From: Euryarchaeota archaeon UBA171
GTDB taxonomy: Archaea; Thermoplasmatota; Poseidoniia; Poseidoniales; Thalassarchaeaceae
Assembly: GCA_002497295.1 (NCBI GenBank)
Contig: DANO01000025.1
Location: 71,098-135,097, forward strand
DNA length: 64,000 bases
Direction: 5' to 3'
Part shown: positions 14,926 through 53,129 of the stretch, piece after piece
Numbering within the stretch: position 1 is the stretch's first letter
Layout of the letters: every line of letters begins with the position of its first letter
Program-made: the position numbers and the translations under genes
Notes under the pieces: generated by a model
The model's database searches: none
What the model was told of the DNA's origin: nothing
What the model saw: only the letters and a program-made list of their open reading frames with translations

Positions 14926-14970
14926 GGGTGACGTTTCGACCCCATAGGTTTCCAATTGAGCGCAAGTAAC

Positions 14971-17900
14971 ATGAGGCACGCCTCACACGGGAACCTGATG
15001 ACGACCTCGCGTCGAGCAGTTGCCCTCCTGATATTGGCAACATTGCTCATTCCTCTTACCGCTTCTCAGATCTATTCTAGAGATGATGAAAGAGGGGGTT
15101 ATGACCATGCTGGCGAGTGGCAACCAAGGCATGCTCTGGAGATCCATGATGGATGGTGGAACGATTGGTCCAGAGACTCTAACCAAAACATGATTGACGA
15201 TAGGCTTGAATGGCTACTTGAACAACCAACTGAGTTCTATTCCAGTTGGTGGAGAATGGCAGATGCCGGCAATGCAAGGGTATTCATCGATTATGATCAC
15301 CACCCCTCTTCAGCAGATGTCGAGGCGATTGAAGAACTGGGCATTGAAGTTACAATGCGTCCGATATACCTGGACAGTTTGATCGCCACAGTCCCAATTG
15401 ACCTCCTCCATTCTGAATCGCCAATCCTCGATCTATCGGGAGTCGTCATGCTGGAGGATCTAGGTTTGGCTGAAACCCACATGAACGAAGCAGCCCCAAA
15501 TATGGGCGTCGACCAAGTATGGGCTCAGTATGGCTATGATGGAACAGGAGTCACTATCGCTGTACTTGATACTGGAGTGAGGGGAGATCACGAGGGCCTC
15601 AATGATTTGGATGACGAGATTACGTTAGGTTGTGATCAACCCGATCCAGACCCGTTCAACCCAACCCCAATCACAATCGATTGCGATCCAAAGATATCCG
15701 CTTTCTATGATGCTGTAATCACTAACTCCGAGCGACCAGCAAGTGAATCTTATGATTCAGGGACCCATGGTTCACATGTTGCGGGCATTGCTGCTGGCAC
15801 AGGCGGCGGACAAGAGGCGCCTGACGGTTCGGCGTATGTTGGAATCGCACCAGGTGCATGGGTGGTCAATATCCTCGCATGTTGTGAAGGCGATATCCAA
15901 GATGTGATAGAAGGTGCGCAGTGGGCAATTGAGAATAAGAATTCTAAAGGCATAGACATTCTAACATCTTCACTTGGCGAGCAGCAGTTGGAGATTCATT
16001 TCGATAATGACGGCTCATCAGCATGGAGCCAACAGATGGATGCCGTCGCAGCATCTGGAATCATCACATTCCTCTCAGCTGGAAATGAATTTGGTGGCGC
16101 AACATTAGCCGGCTGCAATACCATCGACAGCCCAGGCGATGCAAATCTTCCCATCACAGTCGCAAGTCTGGATAAGGATCTGGGTCTGGCCATCTATTCA
16201 AGCAGGGGTTATACCTCAGATGGGCGAGTCAAGCCCGACGTTTCTACGATAGGATCGAACATAATGGCTCCTGATGCCGCTACCTCTGATGGCTACACGA
16301 GTAAATCTGGAACCAGTATGGCAACCCCGCTCATGGCAGGTATTGCTGCACTGATGGTCGAGGCAAACCCGGATATCGACCACGAACAGGTCAAGTCTAT
16401 CGTAAGTGCTCTCTCGATAGAACGCGATATTCAACTTCTCGACGATCCTGGATTCAATGACTGTAGTGTTTTGGAAACCCGTCCAGATAACGAGTTTGGA
16501 TACGGTCAGGCAGATCCTCTATCTTTCGTACAGGCAGCAGGCGCAATAGATTCTTCCTTGAACGTTTCAATGAACATTGAAACGTTGGAGCATCTAGGGA
16601 ATGAGTCTAGGATATCAGGCACTTCGACAGGCGGGGTTCCAGGCGTCGGATTCGTAGAGGTTATGGTTGGAGGCGACGATTGGAAGCAAGCAGCCGACCT
16701 ATCATCTGGGGGAGACTGGTCGTCTTGGAACATTAAGTTGGATCCACATACTCAGTCAGGCAACTCGACAGTGTATGCCCGGCTGGTGATTAGCGATGAG
16801 AGGATGTCTCCCGTGGATGCCCGAAGAGTCGTACTCGTGGATGAGGCAGCGGGCTCAAGCGGAGGCGCTGGGGGACAGTCTTCCGTTGGAGCATACGTAT
16901 TCTTCATCCCCTTCCTCGCCACTCTTGCACTTCTCGGGTGGACCGCCCTTAGGGAAGACTGGTCCACAAGCCCCGTTAAGAAGCAAGAAAATGATGAGGA
17001 AGATGGCGAATCAACCCCCTCTTCAAATTGGCGAGAAGATCCATTCAGATTCTTGTCCGAATTACGACGGGGAGGACCACTCACCGAGAATGGAACCAAG
17101 AGGCTTCTAACACTGTGCATTCTTTACTTTGCACAAGGCCTCCCATGGGGCTTTGCCAGCGTCACATTTGCGGCATACCTGGTTGACAATGGAGTCCCGA
17201 TTGGCGATATCGCCATACTGTTTGCCACGGTAGCGTTACCTTGGACATTCAAGTGGATATGGGGGCCAGTCGTGGATGCTGTGAATATACCTCGATACGG
17301 CGCTAGAAGGCAATGGGTACTCATAGCCCAGGCAGGTATGGTTGTCACACTGGGGACGCTCCTCCTAGTACCTGACTTGAATGCTGAGATAGACCTAGTA
17401 ACACGCTTATTGTTCGTACACAACATATTCGCTTCCCTACAGGATGTCGGTACAGATGCTCTGGCGGTGGAGATACTTGAGCCAAATGAGGTGGCCAAGG
17501 CCAACGGCTTCATGTTTGCAGCCAAGAGGGCCGGAATTATCGTCGGCGGCGCTGTGCTCGGAGTCTCAGTTACTCAAATCGGCATCAGTGGCGTGATTGC
17601 CATCCAACTCGTACTCCTTTCCCTCATATTGCTCGTTCCACTTACCATGGTCGAGAAGCCAGGCGTCAAATTGTTCCCTTGGTCCAAGTCTGATGAAAGT
17701 CAGTGGTGGGATGATTCAGACGGTCAAGATGATGCACAGGGCATTGACGTCGAAGGATCTGAGGTATCAGAGCCATGGCTGGAAGAGCAGAGATTCAAGA
17801 TTGCTCGGAAAGTCGGATTGACGCTGGATAGTAGGAGAATATCCGTATCTGCATTCTTTACCATAGCGGCTCTGTTAGTGTGGATAGTCGGATTCGCAAT

Positions 17901-18780
17901 AGATGTCTTCACAATCGATTTCAAGCTAGGCGATAACATCAGACAGATCACCAATCCCGTGAGCTACCTCTTCTTCCTGATATCATTAGTCGCATTCGCT
18001 CTTTCCGCGAGAGGGATATTGGGATCGAGCGTGACGAACCCATTAGCACGCCTTCCCGAGGGGACGAGGCGAGGCGTAGCCGAAACCTCATTCTATCTTA
18101 CAAAGGCATTCTCTGTCCGTTCTGCTTTGCTATTGATAGGGCTCTGCTTACTCTCCGAACTCTACATATTCGTGGCCCCAATTGTGATTGACATCTTCAT
18201 CAATGAAGCAGGCTGGTCCCAGGCGAAGTACAATGGAATAGTCGGGGGAATCGTGGTCTTCGGTGCGCTAATTGGCCAAATAATCGGAGGTCTGCTGGGA
18301 GATAGATTCGGCGTAAGGAGAGTTGCGATGGTCGGATTTACTGTACTGGCTCTTGCGAATGCATGTTTCGCACTCCTCGAACCCCTTTGGTCCAACACCT
18401 CGATAATGACAGTCTACCTGATTGCGCAGGCGTTTGTCGGCGGGATGGCGTGGATATGCATCATTTCGCTGAGTATGAGGCTGACATGGAGCAAGGTGGG
18501 AGGAACTCAATTCACAGCATACATGTCCCTGTTCAATCTCTCAGGCGTCTTTGCATACACTCTAACGGAGAGGATGATTTCGGTATTCGACTACAAGTCT
18601 GCCATCTACATTGGTGCTACTTTGACCCTGTTAACAGTGTTCATGCTTGTATTCATTGATGAGGACGAGACTGACAGAATCCTCGAGGGCGATGACATAC
18701 ATTCACAAGATGAGCCAGAAATATTCGAACCAATCCTAGGCGATGTGATGATCGATGAAAAACCCGCTGCAGCAGTTTGA
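14971..18780 (+). CDS. Fusion protein: secreted subtilisin-like (S8) serine protease + single TM + AmpG/PAT-like major facilitator transporter
   Basis: One uninterrupted ORF. The signal or anchor is RRAVALLILATLLIPLTAS. The S8 motifs are IAVLDTGV (Asp), THGSHVAGIAAG (His), LSAGNEFGG (Asn) and SGTSMATPLMAG (Ser). A TM helix VGAYVFFIPFLATLALLGW and an acidic linker follow. The MFS part then carries YFAQGLPWGFA...LPWTFKWIWGPVVD...YGARRQWVL (AmpG-like) and at least 12 hydrophobic segments. The track start is a TTG at 14956; I prefer the ATG at 14971. Confidence 0.85.
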   Translation: MRHASHGNLMTTSRRAVALLILATLLIPLTASQIYSRDDERGGYDHAGEWQPRHALEIHDGWWNDWSRDSNQNMIDDRLEWLLEQPTEFYSSWWRMADAGNARVFIDYDHHPSSADVEAIEELGIEVTMRPIYLDSLIATVPIDLLHSESPILDLSGVVMLEDLGLAETHMNEAAPNMGVDQVWAQYGYDGTGVTIAVLDTGVRGDHEGLNDLDDEITLGCDQPDPDPFNPTPITIDCDPKISAFYDAVITNSERPASESYDSGTHGSHVAGIAAGTGGGQEAPDGSAYVGIAPGAWVVNILACCEGDIQDVIEGAQWAIENKNSKGIDILTSSLGEQQLEIHFDNDGSSAWSQQMDAVAASGIITFLSAGNEFGGATLAGCNTIDSPGDANLPITVASLDKDLGLAIYSSRGYTSDGRVKPDVSTIGSNIMAPDAATSDGYTSKSGTSMATPLMAGIAALMVEANPDIDHEQVKSIVSALSIERDIQLLDDPGFNDCSVLETRPDNEFGYGQADPLSFVQAAGAIDSSLNVSMNIETLEHLGNESRISGTSTGGVPGVGFVEVMVGGDDWKQAADLSSGGDWSSWNIKLDPHTQSGNSTVYARLVISDERMSPVDARRVVLVDEAAGSSGGAGGQSSVGAYVFFIPFLATLALLGWTALREDWSTSPVKKQENDEEDGESTPSSNWREDPFRFLSELRRGGPLTENGTKRLLTLCILYFAQGLPWGFASVTFAAYLVDNGVPIGDIAILFATVALPWTFKWIWGPVVDAVNIPRYGARRQWVLIAQAGMVVTLGTLLLVPDLNAEIDLVTRLLFVHNIFASLQDVGTDALAVEILEPNEVAKANGFMFAAKRAGIIVGGAVLGVSVTQIGISGVIAIQLVLLSLILLVPLTMVEKPGVKLFPWSKSDESQWWDDSDGQDDAQGIDVEGSEVSEPWLEEQRFKIARKVGLTLDSRRISVSAFFTIAALLVWIVGFAIDVFTIDFKLGDNIRQITNPVSYLFFLISLVAFALSARGILGSSVTNPLARLPEGTRRGVAETSFYLTKAFSVRSALLLIGLCLLSELYIFVAPIVIDIFINEAGWSQAKYNGIVGGIVVFGALIGQIIGGLLGDRFGVRRVAMVGFTVLALANACFALLEPLWSNTSIMTVYLIAQAFVGGMAWICIISLSMRLTWSKVGGTQFTAYMSLFNLSGVFAYTLTERMISVFDYKSAIYIGATLTLLTVFMLVFIDEDETDRILEGDDIHSQDEPEIFEPILGDVMIDEKPAAAV

Positions 18781-23103: not shown

Positions 23104-23583
23104 TCATTCATCACGTTCTGCTGCTCGAAGGCGACGAATTTGGTGAGGGTTAACTTCTCCTTGTACCTCTTTCCCCTTCAGATTGAGGTTGGAAGCAGCG
23201 GCCAGAACCAGTGAGAAGACTGCCATCGGCCTCGCCGCATTACGAGAACCCCACAGATCCCCTCCAAGGTAGTGGAGTGAAAATAGGAGGATACTTGCAA
23301 GTATGCAGAATGACATAATCGCACGCTGACCCATGATTTCTGCTTTCTCAGAACGTGCGATAGTGCCAATACTCATCCACAAGATAGCAGAGATTCCACA
23401 TAGGCTCACTGAAAGAGTCTCAAGTGTGTCAACCAGACTCATACTCTCGCCTAAAGCAACATGTCTGTGAAACTTTCCGGGAAGAGTGCAATCCACACAA
23501 CGATAGACGACCTCCCTAATGGGGGCCCATGGTGCGTGTCGGAAGATGGGGTTTACCGACCACTCGTCGCGAAGATCCCCCAT
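23104..23583 (-). CDS. Hypothetical membrane protein
   Basis: It has three hydrophobic segments. The 5' 55 nt overlap the divergent PolX start, so the true start is probably internal, for example M48 at 23442. Confidence 0.45.
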   Translation of the reverse strand: MGDLRDEWSVNPIFRHAPWAPIREVVYRCVDCTLPGKFHRHVALGESMSLVDTLETLSVSLCGISAILWMSIGTIARSEKAEIMGQRAIMSFCILASILLFSLHYLGGDLWGSRNAARPMAVFSLVLAAASNLNLKGKEVQGEVNPHQIRRLRAAERDE

Positions 23584-25463
23584 ATTTCACAAAGAGTCAG
23601 ATTGTGAAAGTTTTCGATCAGGTGGCAATTCTCCTAGAACTCGACGGAGCAAATCCATTCAGAGTAAGGGCATATCAGAATGCAAGCAGAGCCCTTGGGC
23701 AGATGAATCGTCATTTGGTGGATGTCATCGAATCAAATACCTTAACCGATATCAAAGGAATAGGGAAAGGCCTCTCATCTCTAATTGCGGATGTTGTGAT
23801 GACTGGCGAATGGGGGGATATACAATCCCTCTACGACAGAGTCCCGCCAGGCTTAGTTGAGATGGTGGGGATCCCGGGGTTGGGGCCAAAGAGAGCTAGG
23901 ATATTGTCCAAAGAACTCGACGTCTCCTCAATAGAGGCTCTAAAATCTGCATGTGAGAACAATCTGGTCGCCTCCTTGCAAGGTTTTGGGGAGAAAAGCC
24001 AACAGAGATACCTGGAAGGAATCGAGCTTTTTCGCAGAAATCAAGGCAGGACTAGATTGGATGTGGGGTTAAGATTCGGCCTGGCTCTAGAAAAGAGAAT
24101 TTCAGGTATCTCAGGAGTTGAGAAGGCACAACTCGCGGGAAGCGCCAGACGCAGAAGGGAGACCATCGGAGACCTCGATATCGTAGTGGCAACGCGTCCT
24201 GAGAATCGTTCTTCAGTAATCCAATCGATACTCGACTTACCCGGGATTGCAGATATCAAAGGTTCTGGCGAGTCAAAGATCAGTCTCATCCTTGAGCAGA
24301 GTGTTTTGGATACTTCATTCCCAACAGGCAGTATCGACGACGCCCTCAATGAGGCCATTCTTGATCGCTCGGAGGATGCAACCATAGACGCCCAAGTCAG
24401 AATCGTATCGCCTGAGACATTCCCATACACCTTAGCATACTTTACCGGCTCAAAAGAGCACAACATACGTATGAGGAAGATTGCAATAGATAACGGGTTA
24501 AGGCTCAATGAATTCGGACTTATTCCCGAGAAACTCGCTGGGGGCTTGAAGGGTGTAGATGCGGCCAAGCACACGCTCTCATGTGAGAGTGAAGCAGACA
24601 TATATTCCATGCTCGGTCTTCAGTGGGTAGCCCCTGAACTCAGGGAAGATATGGGAGAGATCGAGGCGGCTGCGGTGAATGGTATCCCCGACTTAATAGA
24701 GTCGGACATGATTAGGGGCGCACTTCATAATCACACGGTTGCTTCTGACGGCTCTTGCACCCTTGAGGAAATGGCGTCAGCAGCAATGGATTTGGGTTGG
24801 GAGTATCTTGGAATCGCAGAACATTCCCCTGCATTGAATATCGGAGGTCGAAGTATAGGCGTAGATCCGGTCGATGTATCCATTCAGGGCGATATGATTC
24901 GCGCATTAAATGAGAAATGGGCGGATCGCAATGAAAAGTTCAGGATATTTCATGGCACGGAATGTGACATACTCCCTGACGGAAAGTTGGACTACTCCCC
25001 AGATGTTAGAAATCAATTCCACCACGTAATAGGTTCAGTGCACGCCATTGGCTCTTGGAGATCCCGGGATGAACAGGACAATACTGATGCAATAATCAAA
25101 GCAGTCGAGGACCCAACGTTCACAATATTGGGCCATCCAACTGGCCGTATCCTCCAAGCAAGAGATGGATTCCCTATCGATATGATTCAGATCATTGAAA
25201 AGATGGGCGAGATAAACTCAAATGGCACGCTCAAGGCCATAGAAATCAACGCATCACCATTTCGCCTCGATCTTGATTGGAGGCTCTGCAAGGTTGCCAA
25301 AGAAAATGGGGTGCCTATTGTGATAAATCCGGACGCACATAGCGCAGAAGGCCTCTCCGATGTCTCATATGGCGTAGACATAGCACGCAAGGGATGGCTT
25401 CGCGCAGAAGACGTCCTCAATACCAGATCCGGAGATGAGTTGGACGAGATCCTTGGAGAATAA
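23529..25463 (+). CDS. polX: Family X DNA polymerase with C-terminal PHP domain
   Basis: It has HhH motifs (GIGKGLSS, IPGLGPKRA) and a polymerase-beta nucleotidyltransferase core, GSARRRRETIGDLDIVV. The PHP domain starts at ALHNHTVASDGS, with later HSP..., GTECD and NPDAH metal ligands. Confidence 0.9.
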   Translation: MVRVGRWGLPTTRREDPPYFTKSQIVKVFDQVAILLELDGANPFRVRAYQNASRALGQMNRHLVDVIESNTLTDIKGIGKGLSSLIADVVMTGEWGDIQSLYDRVPPGLVEMVGIPGLGPKRARILSKELDVSSIEALKSACENNLVASLQGFGEKSQQRYLEGIELFRRNQGRTRLDVGLRFGLALEKRISGISGVEKAQLAGSARRRRETIGDLDIVVATRPENRSSVIQSILDLPGIADIKGSGESKISLILEQSVLDTSFPTGSIDDALNEAILDRSEDATIDAQVRIVSPETFPYTLAYFTGSKEHNIRMRKIAIDNGLRLNEFGLIPEKLAGGLKGVDAAKHTLSCESEADIYSMLGLQWVAPELREDMGEIEAAAVNGIPDLIESDMIRGALHNHTVASDGSCTLEEMASAAMDLGWEYLGIAEHSPALNIGGRSIGVDPVDVSIQGDMIRALNEKWADRNEKFRIFHGTECDILPDGKLDYSPDVRNQFHHVIGSVHAIGSWRSRDEQDNTDAIIKAVEDPTFTILGHPTGRILQARDGFPIDMIQIIEKMGEINSNGTLKAIEINASPFRLDLDWRLCKVAKENGVPIVINPDAHSAEGLSDVSYGVDIARKGWLRAEDVLNTRSGDELDEILGE

Positions 25464-44283: not shown

Positions 44284-45249
44284 ATGGCAGAAGCGCGTGC
44301 ACCCGGAAAGGCGATTCTGTTCGGGGAGCATGCAGTTGTCTATGGCCACCCAGCCGTTGCTGTTGCGATTGAAGCAGGCGTAAATGTCACGGTTTCAGAT
44401 AATAAGGAATGGGCGGTCGAAGGTAGGCCACTCGACTCAATACGGCATCCGCATCTGAAATCGATAATATCCAGGATGCCACAGGGACCAGGACCCTACT
44501 CTTTTCAGATATCTAGTACGCTTTTTTCTGCAGCTGGACAAGGGTCATCCGCAGCCTTATCTGTAGCCGCACATCTTGCTCTCAGCAATCAGATCGGCGA
44601 ATCATCTAGCGTGATAGATGCTGCCAAATCCGGACATTTGGCGGAGGCTGCTGCTCAATCCGGACGCGCCAGTCCGACAGATACGGCCACCAGCGCTCTT
44701 GGCGGTTGCGTCGTCGTCTCATCGTCACTTCCGCCTATGGTAAAGCACGTGTTCGGGGCAGAATTGGAAACCTCTGAAGGTCTTCGAACATGGGATGTAG
44801 GTACTATCGATCTCCCAGACGATTCCAACCCTCCATCACTGGTCCTCGGATTCACCGGGAACTCATCGAAAACGGGAAAAATGGTCGCCATGGTTGCAGA
44901 TTTGATATCTTCGAACCCTGAACGAAAATCCGATTTAGATTCAATAGGGGAAATCACTGCAGTGGGACTGGTCGCTCTTGCCTCTGCTGAGTGGGAAGCA
45001 GTCGGTATGGCCATGAATGCATGTCATGATAGACTCGAGGCACTTAACCTAAGCACGCCATTCTTAGAGAAGTTGATCGCAGCCGTACGCCCTTATTCTC
45101 TCGGAGCCAAACTTACTGGTGCGGGCGGTGGCGGGTGTATGATGGCTCTGACGAGAGATCCCGCACGTGTCGCTCAGATGATGGAGCTACATGGCGCTAA
45201 AGCCATGATAAGCTCATTTCACAACAAAGGGGCTCAGATTTTAGGCTGA
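44284..45249 (+). CDS. mvk: Mevalonate kinase (GHMP kinase)
   Basis: It carries APGKAILFGEHAVVYGHPAVAVAI, the GHMP motif AAGQGSSAALSVA and the C-terminal KLTGAGGGGCMMAL. Confidence 0.9.
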   Translation: MAEARAPGKAILFGEHAVVYGHPAVAVAIEAGVNVTVSDNKEWAVEGRPLDSIRHPHLKSIISRMPQGPGPYSFQISSTLFSAAGQGSSAALSVAAHLALSNQIGESSSVIDAAKSGHLAEAAAQSGRASPTDTATSALGGCVVVSSSLPPMVKHVFGAELETSEGLRTWDVGTIDLPDDSNPPSLVLGFTGNSSKTGKMVAMVADLISSNPERKSDLDSIGEITAVGLVALASAEWEAVGMAMNACHDRLEALNLSTPFLEKLIAAVRPYSLGAKLTGAGGGGCMMALTRDPARVAQMMELHGAKAMISSFHNKGAQILG

Positions 45250-45266: not shown

Positions 45267-45273
45267 TTATATA
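45267..45273 (+). promoter_or_regulatory. Putative TATA box TTATATA upstream of tbp
   Basis: It is centred about 26 nt upstream of the ATG at 45296, implying a leaderless mRNA. A second TATATAA at 45277-45283 is too close to the start to serve that codon. Confidence 0.35.
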
Positions 45274-45295: not shown

Positions 45296-46048
45296 ATGAA
45301 GAGTGATGAAGAACGCTTGACTGTAGTCAACGTAGTCGCATCTACAAGAGTCGCCGAAGAACTAGACCTACCTGACATCGCAATCCAACTGAATTGTGAA
45401 TATGAGCCGGAGCAATTCCCCGGCGTCGTCTATCGAGTCGTGGACCCGAAACTTGCCATCTTGATGTTCCGATCAGGAAGAGCCGTGTGCACAGGCGGGA
45501 AGAATGAGGAGAATATCCATGAGGGAATCACCCGCATGATAGGGGATTTAAGAGCAGCAGGAATCGAGACTTGGGAGATAGAAGACGTCAAGATCGAGGT
45601 TCAGAATATGGTCGCCACATATGCACTGCACTATCCCGAAGATTACAATGGAACTGCACGCATGGACGACATCAATACCCGTGTAATAGATCTTGATGAG
45701 GGAGAAATACGTCCTGCTGATGACGAAGAGATTGAAGTTTGGAATGCAATGACAAAGGAAGAACAAGAAAAGTTCGGCAAATTCCAGATCCGTGGAATAA
45801 AGCAGGGAGAGCCATTGGCCACAATGCCCAGGAAACTCAATCTGAACAACCTTACGTTCCACCTGCCTTTCGATAAGGTAGAATACGAGCCAGAGCAGTT
45901 CCCGGGTCTGATTTACAGGTTAGACTACCCACGTGTTGTGTGTTTGATTTTCGGAAGCGGTAAGATGGTGATAACCGGCGCGAGAAGGAAAGATGAGATT
46001 TTAGAAGCCGTCCAATTCATTCAGGATGAGTTGGCCGACCTACTCTGA
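45296..46048 (+). CDS. tbp: TATA-box-binding protein with a large insertion in repeat 2
   Basis: Both TBP repeats are recognisable: VNVVASTRV...EYEPEQFPGVVYRV...FRSGRAVCTGG and IEVQNMVATYAL...EYEPEQFPGLIYRL...FGSGKMVITGA. The protein is 250 aa against about 180-190 for typical archaeal TBPs, because of an insert at about aa 112-177. Confidence 0.9.
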   Translation: MKSDEERLTVVNVVASTRVAEELDLPDIAIQLNCEYEPEQFPGVVYRVVDPKLAILMFRSGRAVCTGGKNEENIHEGITRMIGDLRAAGIETWEIEDVKIEVQNMVATYALHYPEDYNGTARMDDINTRVIDLDEGEIRPADDEEIEVWNAMTKEEQEKFGKFQIRGIKQGEPLATMPRKLNLNNLTFHLPFDKVEYEPEQFPGLIYRLDYPRVVCLIFGSGKMVITGARRKDEILEAVQFIQDELADLL

Positions 46049-51281: not shown

Positions 51282-51368
51282 GGCTGCACGACACACTACA
51301 GTCACATGAAGCCTCGTACCGCCCCATCGCAACCCTATGTTCATCTCCTCCCTGCCTCATTGGGGTGC

Positions 51369-53129
51369 ATGGAGGTACCCGGCGAGCTCGCTGCCATGCT
51401 TGCTGGAGAGCATGGTCCGACACGTCAAAAGGCGGCACGATTAGTGACCGACCTCGCCCTTGCCGCTGGAGCAAATCAATTCACTAAGGCTTCTAATGCG
51501 CATGTTTCCGGCGTCTCTGTGATTACTGGCGGAGTCGGTCTTAGACGGTTTCTTGCAGATTTAGCTTCAGACGGAGATGCCAAGGTCGCTATACCCACTA
51601 CTCTGAACTCAGCCGGATGCGACTCTTCTAAGATTAATCAGATGGGAATTGATTATCCTGATTTCATGATCCTGCAAGCCGAGATAGTGACCTCCTACTG
51701 GGAGATGGGCATCCAAACAACTCTGTCATGCACGCCTTACGATCGCGATTCAGAATCAAGTAGCGGGATAGGTAGCTGGGCAGAATCGAACGCTGTGTGC
51801 TTTGCGAATACGTACACAGATTTAGCCACAAACAGGGAATCGGGTCTTTCAGCACTTTCCACAGCCTTGACCGGATGGGCCCCACTTTGGGGGCTCCACC
51901 TCCCGTCTAACAGGAAGCCGAATATCCTGGTGAACGTTGAATGCAACCTTACCGACTCCACAGACTTCTCAGTTCTAGGAGATTGGATAGGCCGGCAAAT
52001 CGAGTCAGACTGGACACTCCCATTCGGGCCGATGCCCAGGATACAGGGCTTGCCCGTGAGTGCTACATTTGAGATGAAGAAGGCACTCACCGCAGCAGCA
52101 GCAAATTTCGGTTGCCCGATGCTTTGGGCAGACGGCCTAACGCGGGACGCTCCAGATTCCGAATATCAGGGCTCGGTCACTTTCACACAAGAAGATCTTG
52201 ACGCGTGCTATGGCCGGCTCGCCCCGACCGGCCGAGTAGACCTAGTTGTCATTGGATGCCCGCAGGCAAGCATAGGGGAAGCACGTGCAGTGGCGGCAGA
52301 GGTACGAGCAAGAATGGAGTTGGGTGAAAAGATACCCGATCATCGTCTATGGCTATTCACATCGGGCACGGTGCACGATCAACTTCTCGCAGATGGCACA
52401 TCAGATATTCTGGAAGAAGGGGGCGTGCTTCTTCTAAGGGACACTTGTCCCGAAGTTACTCCGTACAACAGGAATCGGTACAACTACCTGCTCACCAATT
52501 CCATGAAAGCCGAACATTATCTCACTAGTGGTTTGAATTCAATGCCTACGAGCGTTGCTAGAATACCTGAGTGTGTAGCGCATGCATTCGATCCAGATTT
52601 ATCCTCCGGGCCTCCTCCCTCACTTGAAAAATCTCATGCAAAAGAAATGATTTCTACTAAAACATGGAAGAGTGGAGACATTTTACTGAGAGGATCCGGA
52701 TTACCAAGCCAGCATTCATTCGAGGTGACTGCTAGAGCGCTAGTCACAGACATACCGATCACATACCTCGGATATGTGGATCCAGAAACAGGTATTGTAA
52801 CTGAGCCTGGACACCCCCTTCATGGACAGGCTGTAGGCGGGAAGGTTCTCGTCTACCCGAGAGGTTCAGGATCCACTGTAGCCCCTTATGTGCTGATGGG
52901 TCTCTCTTATGGGGGAAAGGCGCCTGCAGCAATCTTGAACAGGGACGTTTGTCCTCTTACCCTTCCTGCCGCTTCTATACAGGCAATACCATATGGCCAT
53001 GGCTTCGATACCGATCCTACTATTGAGATAAATTCTGGAGACCTCGTGAAAATGACTCTCAACGATGGCATCGTCTCAGTCACTATATTGGATCGCTCAC
53101 CATCTCCGGATAAGGCGGAATCAGTATGA
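51369..53129 (+). CDS. Aconitase X (AcnX) family dehydratase, fused large (DUF521) + small swivel (DUF126) domains
   Basis: The N-terminal part reads AHVSGVSVITGG...AIPTTLNSAGCD and LSCTPY. The C-terminal part reads ITYLGYVDPETGIV...HPLHGQAVGGKVLVYPRGSGSTVAPYVL...GKAPAAIL (DUF126 pattern). I prefer the ATG at 51369 (MEVPGELA). Confidence 0.75.
   Translation: MEVPGELAAMLAGEHGPTRQKAARLVTDLALAAGANQFTKASNAHVSGVSVITGGVGLRRFLADLASDGDAKVAIPTTLNSAGCDSSKINQMGIDYPDFMILQAEIVTSYWEMGIQTTLSCTPYDRDSESSSGIGSWAESNAVCFANTYTDLATNRESGLSALSTALTGWAPLWGLHLPSNRKPNILVNVECNLTDSTDFSVLGDWIGRQIESDWTLPFGPMPRIQGLPVSATFEMKKALTAAAANFGCPMLWADGLTRDAPDSEYQGSVTFTQEDLDACYGRLAPTGRVDLVVIGCPQASIGEARAVAAEVRARMELGEKIPDHRLWLFTSGTVHDQLLADGTSDILEEGGVLLLRDTCPEVTPYNRNRYNYLLTNSMKAEHYLTSGLNSMPTSVARIPECVAHAFDPDLSSGPPPSLEKSHAKEMISTKTWKSGDILLRGSGLPSQHSFEVTARALVTDIPITYLGYVDPETGIVTEPGHPLHGQAVGGKVLVYPRGSGSTVAPYVLMGLSYGGKAPAAILNRDVCPLTLPAASIQAIPYGHGFDTDPTIEINSGDLVKMTLNDGIVSVTILDRSPSPDKAESV

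Follow-up and report, generated by a model that had tools for sequence, protein, structure and literature searches.

Marine Group II archaea (Poseidoniales) are uncultured and rank among the most numerous archaea in ocean surface waters. We analysed the gene for the TATA-binding protein (TBP) of one of them, Euryarchaeota archaeon UBA171 (family Thalassarchaeaceae), in a stretch of 64,000 nucleotides (nt) of contig DANO01000025.1, hereafter the window. TBP is among the most conserved transcription proteins of archaea and eukaryotes, and its core is usually taken as fixed in length. The product of this gene has two TBP repeats recognised by Pfam (PF00352; E = 2.9e-51, 171.7 bits against a cut-off of 22.9) and matches TBPs in the Protein Data Bank (PDB) at E = 1e-42 with phmmer. 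Inside its second repeat it carries a block of extra residues, which a sequence-only reading had described as a single acidic insert of about 65 residues encoded at 45629-45826. The features discussed below are as follows, in window coordinates and with residue numbers of the 250-amino-acid (aa) protein.

45267-45273, forward strand: TATA-like element TTATATA, read from the sequence, its centre about 26 nt 5' of the ATG
45296-46048, forward strand: tbp gene, open reading frame (ORF) including the stop codon; the product is the 250-aa TBP
45593-45625, forward strand: strand S1' of repeat 2, residues 100-110, with N104 and V106 (assigned with DSSP on an AlphaFold2 model; invariant in 130 Poseidoniales sequences)
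45629-45679, forward strand: N-arm of the base finger (tier 1), residues 112-128, HYPEDYNGTARMDDINT
45680-45796, forward strand: nested head module (tier 2), residues 129-167, about 33-36 aa, at the finger tip
45749-45784, forward strand: tip (tier 3), residues 152-163, MTKEEQEKFGKF, 12 residues, predicted helical at 154-160
45797-45835, forward strand: C-arm of the base finger (tier 1), residues 168-180, IKQGEPLATMPRK
45842-45862, forward strand: helix H1', residues 183-189, with clade-specific F188 and H189 (DSSP; signature-position analysis)
45881-45907, forward strand: C-terminal stirrup EYEPEQFPG, residues 196-204, with E198, E200 and the DNA-kinking F202; invariant in 130 sequences

We located the extra residues by alignment. 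In phmmer alignments to PDB sequences, residues 6-114 match repeat 1 and S1' of M. jannaschii TBP and the alignment restarts at residues 182-190; residues ~115-180 align with no TBP in the PDB, which leaves ~66-68 residues unmatched. In a multiple alignment with TBPs of 183-201 aa, all of the extra residues stand in one block, between QNMVATYAL (S1') and LNLNNL (H1'), and are not scattered as ordinary loop variation would be. Between the end of S1' and EYEPEQFPG there are 88 aa here, as against 20-26 aa in canonical TBPs, a range that we found in about 43 other TBP cores. The PDB alignment, the multiple alignment and DSSP on the AlphaFold2 model agree in placing the block between S1' and H1'. 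The extra internal segment is therefore real and discrete; it lies inside the saddle, where a loop joins S1' and H1' of repeat 2, and comprises ~64-68 aa (residues 112-180, nt 45629-45835). The interval first proposed encodes exactly a 66-residue string, H112-M177, but the true 3' end lies slightly further on, at 45835.

Comparison with homologues resolved what had been read as a single insert into three nested layers, with a commonest total length of ~53 aa. The outermost layer is a base finger of ~20 aa with the consensus HYPEDYxGxxR/K...G[ED]PLAxxPRK. In the Poseidoniales alignment, Y113, P114, E115, Y117 and G119 of its N-arm are conserved at 96-99%, and G171, L174, P178 and R179 of its C-arm at 93-100%. 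We found the finger in every length class recovered from Poseidoniales and in a virus-like TBP, P0127 (P and L numbers are our identifiers for proteins and loci), and it makes up the entire insert in abundant proteins of 204-206 aa such as P0516, which occurs on 295 contigs of up to 2.04 Mb. The second layer consists of a hydrophobic strand, a glycine turn, a hydrophobic residue followed by R-x-x-T-[DE]-E-E, an acidic stretch and an arginine. It can be aligned between Poseidoniaceae (MGIIa) and Thalassarchaeaceae (MGIIb), which share the hydrophobic-R-x-x-T-[DE]-E-E motif, and judged by these sequences it is therefore homologous in both; Poseidoniales forms of 204-213 aa lack it. The third layer, the tip, is a clean in-frame insertion of 36 nt relative to proteins of 238 aa. 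It is confined to the clade of the window, within which its differences are mostly synonymous, and it is present in 2% of the Poseidoniales alignment. Three other proteins (P0121, P0300 and P0319) have unrelated sequences at the same sub-site. Helix H1', which follows the insert, exceeds its counterpart in roughly half of the canonical TBPs in the comparison by two residues.

We propose that nested insertion enlarged the S1'-H1' loop of repeat 2, which normally has 2-4 residues. The two-armed base finger, found order-wide, would be the first layer; a beta-hairpin, a capped helix and a strand would have been inserted at its tip in MGIIa and MGIIb lineages, others being without them; and lineage-specific residues would have been added at the tip of that module in turn, 12 of them in the window. 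We hold this account of the anatomy and evolution of the insert with high confidence. A core-only neighbour-joining tree, examined for gain and loss of tier 2, gave interleaved length classes, the core being too conserved to resolve individual events.

At the DNA level, an imperfect 10-nt direct repeat, CCGTG[T/G]AATA, brackets the head module at 45679-45688 and 45790-45799, with a spacing of 111 nt. One protein of 213 aa, P0057, found on a single 1.2-kb contig, lacks exactly the 37 codons bounded by this repeat, and is either a natural slippage deletion of the head or an assembly collapse. Tandem duplication was rejected as the origin of the insert, since the insert DNA repeats no word other than one 7-mer. 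We also considered an intein or other mobile insertion. Hint/intein splicing domains have at least ~130 aa, conserved splice-junction residues and a patchy distribution; the TBP insert has 68 aa only, no Pfam match at E <= 10, a base present throughout the order and a ratio of non-synonymous to synonymous substitution rates (dN/dS) of 0.02-0.05, and this origin was likewise rejected.

AlphaFold2 predicts that the insert is folded. With a diverse alignment of 111 sequences, which gave the better of two runs, the mean predicted local distance difference test (pLDDT) score was 92.8, the predicted TM score was 0.81 and the insert itself scored 84-93. A run on a shallow alignment, in which all sequences were at least 75% identical, modelled the core poorly (mean pLDDT 58.9) and left the secondary structure of the insert unchanged. 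DSSP assigned strands at residues 125-132, 138-140 and 165-168 and helices at 143-151 and 154-160. Strands 125-132 and 138-140 form a beta-hairpin, and helix 143-151 starts at the conserved T/D-[DE]-E-E motif, which looks like a helix N-cap. In both models DSSP also marked beta-bridges at residues 112, 120, 173 and 178; DSSP names no bridge partners, and we interpret these bridges as a pairing of the two base arms, which would form a stalk. The insert is thus predicted to be a folded mini-domain with a stalk and a head, rather than an acidic loop resembling a tail. A disordered acidic tail or linker was rejected on the same evidence, that is, pLDDT of 84-93, defined strands and helices and near-invariant base motifs.

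The rest of the model has, as a prediction, the saddle fold of TBP, with a ten-stranded sheet and four helices; in Foldseek its core superimposes on M. jannaschii TBP (2z8u) with a TM score of 0.92 and a root-mean-square deviation of 1.6 A. Normalised to the query, the TM score drops to 0.65, and the 44 TBP chains matched in the PDB at E <= 1e-11 each cover ~170-190 residues of the core; we conclude from these two observations that no solved TBP covers the insert. Foldseek searches of the PDB and of the viral models in BFVD with the whole model likewise matched the TBP core only and never covered the insert. We detected no homologue of the insert in Pfam even at E <= 10 and none in the PDB by phmmer, and a profile of the insert reached a best E-value of 0.7 in the PDB, which is chance level.

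Acidic C-terminal tails of archaeal TBPs and the DNA mimic TAND1 of eukaryotic TAF1 are thought to tune DNA affinity. By analogy, the helix T-D-E-E-V-E-A-E-D of the head could fold onto the basic DNA-binding face of TBP, or onto flanking basic residues, and regulate the protein from within. The 68 residues of the insert include 17 D+E and 10 K+R, giving a net charge of -7 to which this helix contributes, and the protein stops directly after H2' without an acidic C-terminal tail. However, the core itself has a net charge of -13, and acidic and basic residues are roughly balanced in the MGIIa insert; the description of the insert as acidic is apt only in part. What is conserved of the helix is T[DE]EE alone, which resembles a structural N-cap; the model predicts a compact fold for the head, unlike a flexible mimic; and the base-only forms have no acidic helix at all. 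An auto-regulatory acidic module is therefore distinctly unlikely.

It could be argued that an insert of this kind in a core saddle domain is an assembly artefact. We identified the same 250-aa protein, at 98-99% identity, in six independent metagenome-assembled genomes (MAGs; SAT1510, SAT1553, TMED192, UBA250, UBA52 and SP42). The flanking DNA of three of these loci was compared with the window and is just 86-90% identical to it, which indicates that the three represent distinct populations. Shorter versions of the insert occur on thousands of contigs of up to 2 Mb. Together with the six MAGs, these rule out an artefact and answer the question, raised when the insert was first noticed, of its presence in independent assemblies. 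It is also conserved in the lineage: thousands of homologues have an insert at the same site, and their sources are labelled as Thalassarchaeaceae (MGIIb), Poseidoniaceae (MGIIa), Poseidoniales or 'marine group II/III'. Each form was found on hundreds of contigs, single sequences on as many as 723, and individual contigs reach 2 Mb. In an exhaustive search of 1.8 billion cluster representatives, the full-length insert-bearing forms correspond to about one cluster at 50% identity. The next complete relatives beyond that cluster have 183-201 aa and are 50-58% identical, and the nearest labelled cluster of insert-free TBPs, of 182 aa, is from a 'Thermoplasmata archaeon', which speaks for an insert confined to the Poseidoniales clade.

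Haloarchaea have multiple TBPs, and the sequence-only reading had raised the possibility that the insert marks a specialised paralogue beside a canonical housekeeping TBP. The genomic context argues otherwise. Forms of 211, 231, 237-250, 255 and 452 aa share a single syntenic slot, the one that immediately follows a mevalonate (GHMP) kinase gene, and all keep the order of a Fer4/CCG protein on the opposite strand, GHMP kinase and TBP; this shared slot is our reason for treating the length forms as orthologues. Among 80 Thalassarchaeaceae loci, the order mevalonate kinase-TBP-large PKD surface protein was found wherever the flanks were long enough. Across the length forms, a large PKD protein comes directly after TBP in all but the 255-aa form, where one lies ~6 kb downstream. 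Neither the window nor the ~12 kb around each of these 80 loci contains a second TBP. The one candidate for a canonical copy is P0129, an insert-free relative of uncertain origin (183 aa, 56-58% identity, on a 1.4-kb contig). Its closest matches are insert-bearing, or canonical at the site and long for other reasons, and none of its best 120 matches is an insert-free TBP labelled Poseidoniales; the short relatives nearest in sequence sit in virus-like contexts. Within the window and the loci covered here, we consider a paralogue scarcely credible, and the insert-bearing protein appears to be the single orthologous TBP of Poseidoniales.

Two observations bear on individual loci. The MAG TMED192 has a TBP locus on each of two contigs, NHIP02000009.1 (L003) and NHIP02000014.1 (L004), which are collinear and 97.8% identical over 8.2 kb; this is strain redundancy in the bin and not gene duplication. 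The 452-aa orthologue (L089:8001-9359; P0285/P0122) lies between GHMP kinase and a giant PKD protein in the common slot, on 24 contigs of which the longest has 127 kb. In addition to the S1'-H1' insert, it has a second insertion of ~200 aa in the linker between the repeats, at a point corresponding to residues 98-100 of the window protein (nt ~45590), for which we found no match in Pfam or the PDB.

The insert has not displaced the residues on which TBP function depends. Across 130 Poseidoniales sequences there is no variation at N12, V14, F41, F58, N104, V106, F202 and F219, and we take these residues to be DNA minor-groove contacts by homology with yeast and human TBP. The C-terminal stirrup is equally intact, and in it E198 and E200 follow the insert at a distance of 18-20 residues, shortly beyond H1'. 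According to PMC7221094, two conserved glutamates of the C-terminal lobe contact an arginine and a threonine of TFIIB/TFB; by alignment we infer that these are E198 and E200. With the saddle, the DNA-contact residues and the TFB-contact glutamates in place, the protein is, as far as its sequence tells, still a general TATA-binding factor.

We estimated dN/dS by the Nei-Gojobori method over 211 pairs of loci and obtained 0.012 for the core, 0.020 for the base arms and 0.051 for the nested module, ratios that are approximate because dS in the insert is near 1. All three parts are under strong purifying selection, and amino-acid change is accepted in the nested module at about four times the level of the core. 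These ratios bear on the simplest alternative to a functional surface, namely that the insert is a tolerated structural embellishment: an expanded loop with a small hydrophobic core of its own, kept because it must not misfold, and with no specific partner or regulatory role. Folding constraint alone could give low dN/dS, and it would fit this alternative that tier 2 is missing from many lineages, that tier 3 varies between them, that a deletion variant (P0057) exists and that another lineage tolerates a second large insertion in the inter-repeat linker. However, the base finger is near-invariant throughout the order and is kept in virus-like copies whose cores are ~50% identical, and surface residues without function normally drift faster than a dN/dS of 0.02-0.05. 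We regard mere embellishment as possible but unlikely.

Basic residues in the insert suggest a further alternative. In TBP structures this loop emerges from the central strand S1' along the saddle's long edge, close to where the DNA is bent. At the base of the arms, R122, R166, R179 and K/R180 might touch the DNA backbone next to the TATA box and so extend the footprint or make the bent complex more stable. Of these residues, R179 never varies and K/R180 is conserved, while R166 and R122 have a conservation of 72-84%. The arms that would carry these residues to the DNA are themselves rich in acidic and aromatic residues (YPEDY, MDD), which argues against such a contact, and we judge a DNA-contacting finger to be highly improbable.

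The explanation that we prefer combines nested insertion of a mini-domain with an accessory surface on TBP, and we assign it, taken as a whole, a probability of about 0.55. Finger and head would form an extra surface on the TFB-binding C-terminal lobe, serving assembly of the pre-initiation complex or its regulation, with TFB, TFE, RNA polymerase or a lineage-specific regulator as candidate partners. The conserved finger would be the essential element and the variable head a lineage-specific modulator. PMC5501381 describes archaeal activators, Ptr2 and TFB-RF1 among them, that act via stabilised TBP-DNA or TFB-DNA complexes; factors of this type would have a natural point of action in a lineage-specific TBP surface. 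The base finger is also kept in virus-like TBPs (P0127 and P0149) whose cores have diverged to ~50% identity, which suggests that it matters in the Poseidoniales transcription machinery. The functional part, an accessory surface on the TFB-side lobe, is tentative, and we place it somewhat short of even odds.

Several observations weigh against this explanation. The placement on the TFB-side lobe derives solely from position in the sequence, and the AlphaFold2 confidence over the insert draws on Poseidoniales sequences alone. No TFB, TFE or regulator gene is encoded beside tbp, and we found no partner. Signature-position analysis identified 39 clade-specific core substitutions, which are scattered and indicate no docking site. 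Strong purifying selection is equally expected of a purely structural element. The lineages without tier 2 imply that the head is dispensable for basic function, and other virus-type TBPs nearest to the Poseidoniales TBP (P0289, L090-L095) have no finger.

The virus-like relatives fall into several families. Two TBPs of 201 aa, P0287 (L084:3339-3944, L085:2-607, L086:1959-2564) and P0149 (L087:3361-3966, L088:2863-3468), keep a short base finger of ~20 aa (YPEEYEG...EPLAG; FPNDYEG...). P0287 adjoins an ATP-dependent DNA ligase and an RFC-like clamp loader amid a dense array of small, mostly unannotated ORFs on the same strand, a neighbourhood that suggests a viral genome; a homologue of this ligase, at 56% identity, is encoded on a viral contig of IMG/VR (L101). 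P0149 lies within a similar array of unannotated same-strand ORFs. A third protein, P0289 (L082:8001-8573, L083:8001-8573), is encoded on a 170-kb contig crowded with unannotated ORFs, and its family of 186-196 aa includes seven IMG/VR loci (L090-L095 and L098) on viral contigs of 34-166 kb. This family lacks the Poseidoniales base finger, L090 and L091 having just a few extra residues at the site, and it is marked by the motifs EYEQEQFPGMVYR, LPF[DE]K[TS]EYEPEQFPGLI and SSGKCVITG-type sequences. Its closest cellular relatives are the Poseidoniales TBPs, at 47-50% identity. Scans of IMG/VR with the window TBP and with P0127 gave no match, and no IMG/VR relative was found for a neighbour of P0289. 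The phage collection contained no Poseidoniales viruses, and the three magrovirus papers examined make no mention of TBP.

These copies invite the idea that the variable head of the host TBP is the host's part in a conflict with viruses over the transcription machinery. Viruses with captured TBPs, some of them finger-bearing, would redirect host TFB and RNA polymerase, and the head and tips of the host protein would diversify to keep privileged access to that machinery or to evade viral factors. We think this very unlikely. In a milder version, finger and head could be an archaeal hub for docking of regulators, independent of the TAF, Mot1 and NC2 surfaces of eukaryotic TBP.

Compared with canonical archaeal TBPs (M. 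jannaschii 2Z8U, P. woesei 1PCZ/1AIS and S. acidocaldarius 1MP9), the Poseidoniales protein shares the PF00352 repeats and the saddle fold, as well as the DNA-contacting Asn, Val and Phe residues and the TFB-contacting stirrup glutamates. Canonical archaeal TBPs have ~180-190 aa and an S1'-H1' loop of 2-4 residues, whereas the window TBP has a predicted folded insert of 68 residues at this site; unlike them, it also lacks an acidic C-terminal tail. Lineage-specific elaboration of this universal initiation factor is also represented by the haloarchaeal TbpA-F, the eukaryotic TRF/TBPL proteins and the N-terminal extensions of eukaryotic TBP, for which PMC7221094 and PMC5501381 are surveys. Those are extra copies or terminal additions, whereas in Poseidoniales the insertion is internal and interrupts the core of a protein that is apparently the sole orthologous TBP; term searches within both papers yielded no description of an internal core insertion. 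Viral genomes with TBP genes are already known (ANMV-1 and the haloviruses HRTV-9 and HJTV-2; sources include PMC5474096), and the virus-like contigs described here likewise carry TBP genes; in contrast to the known cases, two virus-like families here have a short base finger of the Poseidoniales type (YPEEYEG...EPLAG).

Insert-bearing proteins are already present in databases, plainly named 'TATA-box-binding protein'. We found no description of the insert in the literature on TBP of Marine Group II/Poseidoniales or on insertions in archaeal TBP, within a coverage that leaves out most subscription journals; the insert is apparently undescribed, which this search does not prove. A whole order of globally abundant, uncultured ocean archaea has an insertion, predicted to be folded, inside the TBP saddle. 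The natural series of base only, base with head, base with head and tip, and the 452-aa form with its second insertion amounts to a ready-made deletion set, which could be used to probe extra surfaces of archaeal TBP for regulation, a role so far tied mainly to eukaryotes. In addition, TBPs of the Poseidoniales type, including those on virus-like contigs, can be recognised by the base finger as a simple marker in their sequence, and the finger may therefore help to link viruses with hosts.

The start of the gene and its surroundings gave some minor observations. The TTATATA element is a putative promoter element whose position agrees with a leaderless archaeal mRNA and speaks for M1 being the true start. 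All homologues have a conserved N-terminus, M[KL]SDEERL. Database versions of 252-281 aa (P0099, P0100, P0108, P0112 and others) have N-terminal extensions of 14-43 aa; because M[KL]SDEERL is universal and TTATATA lies ~26 nt before the window ATG, their starts are probably mis-called. The mevalonate kinase gene upstream of tbp is at 44284-45249. About 5 kb downstream of tbp, at 51306-53129, is an aconitase-X family gene (AcnX and swivel domain), a family to which the phosphomevalonate dehydratase of the mevalonate pathway in archaea belongs. At 23529-25463 the window also encodes a family-X DNA polymerase that has a PHP domain. Finally, 14956-18780 on the forward strand is one uninterrupted reading frame of 1274 aa with a Peptidase_S8 domain (residues 196-517) and MFS/BT1 transporter domains (719-1242), which, if it is one gene, would be an unusual subtilase-transporter fusion.

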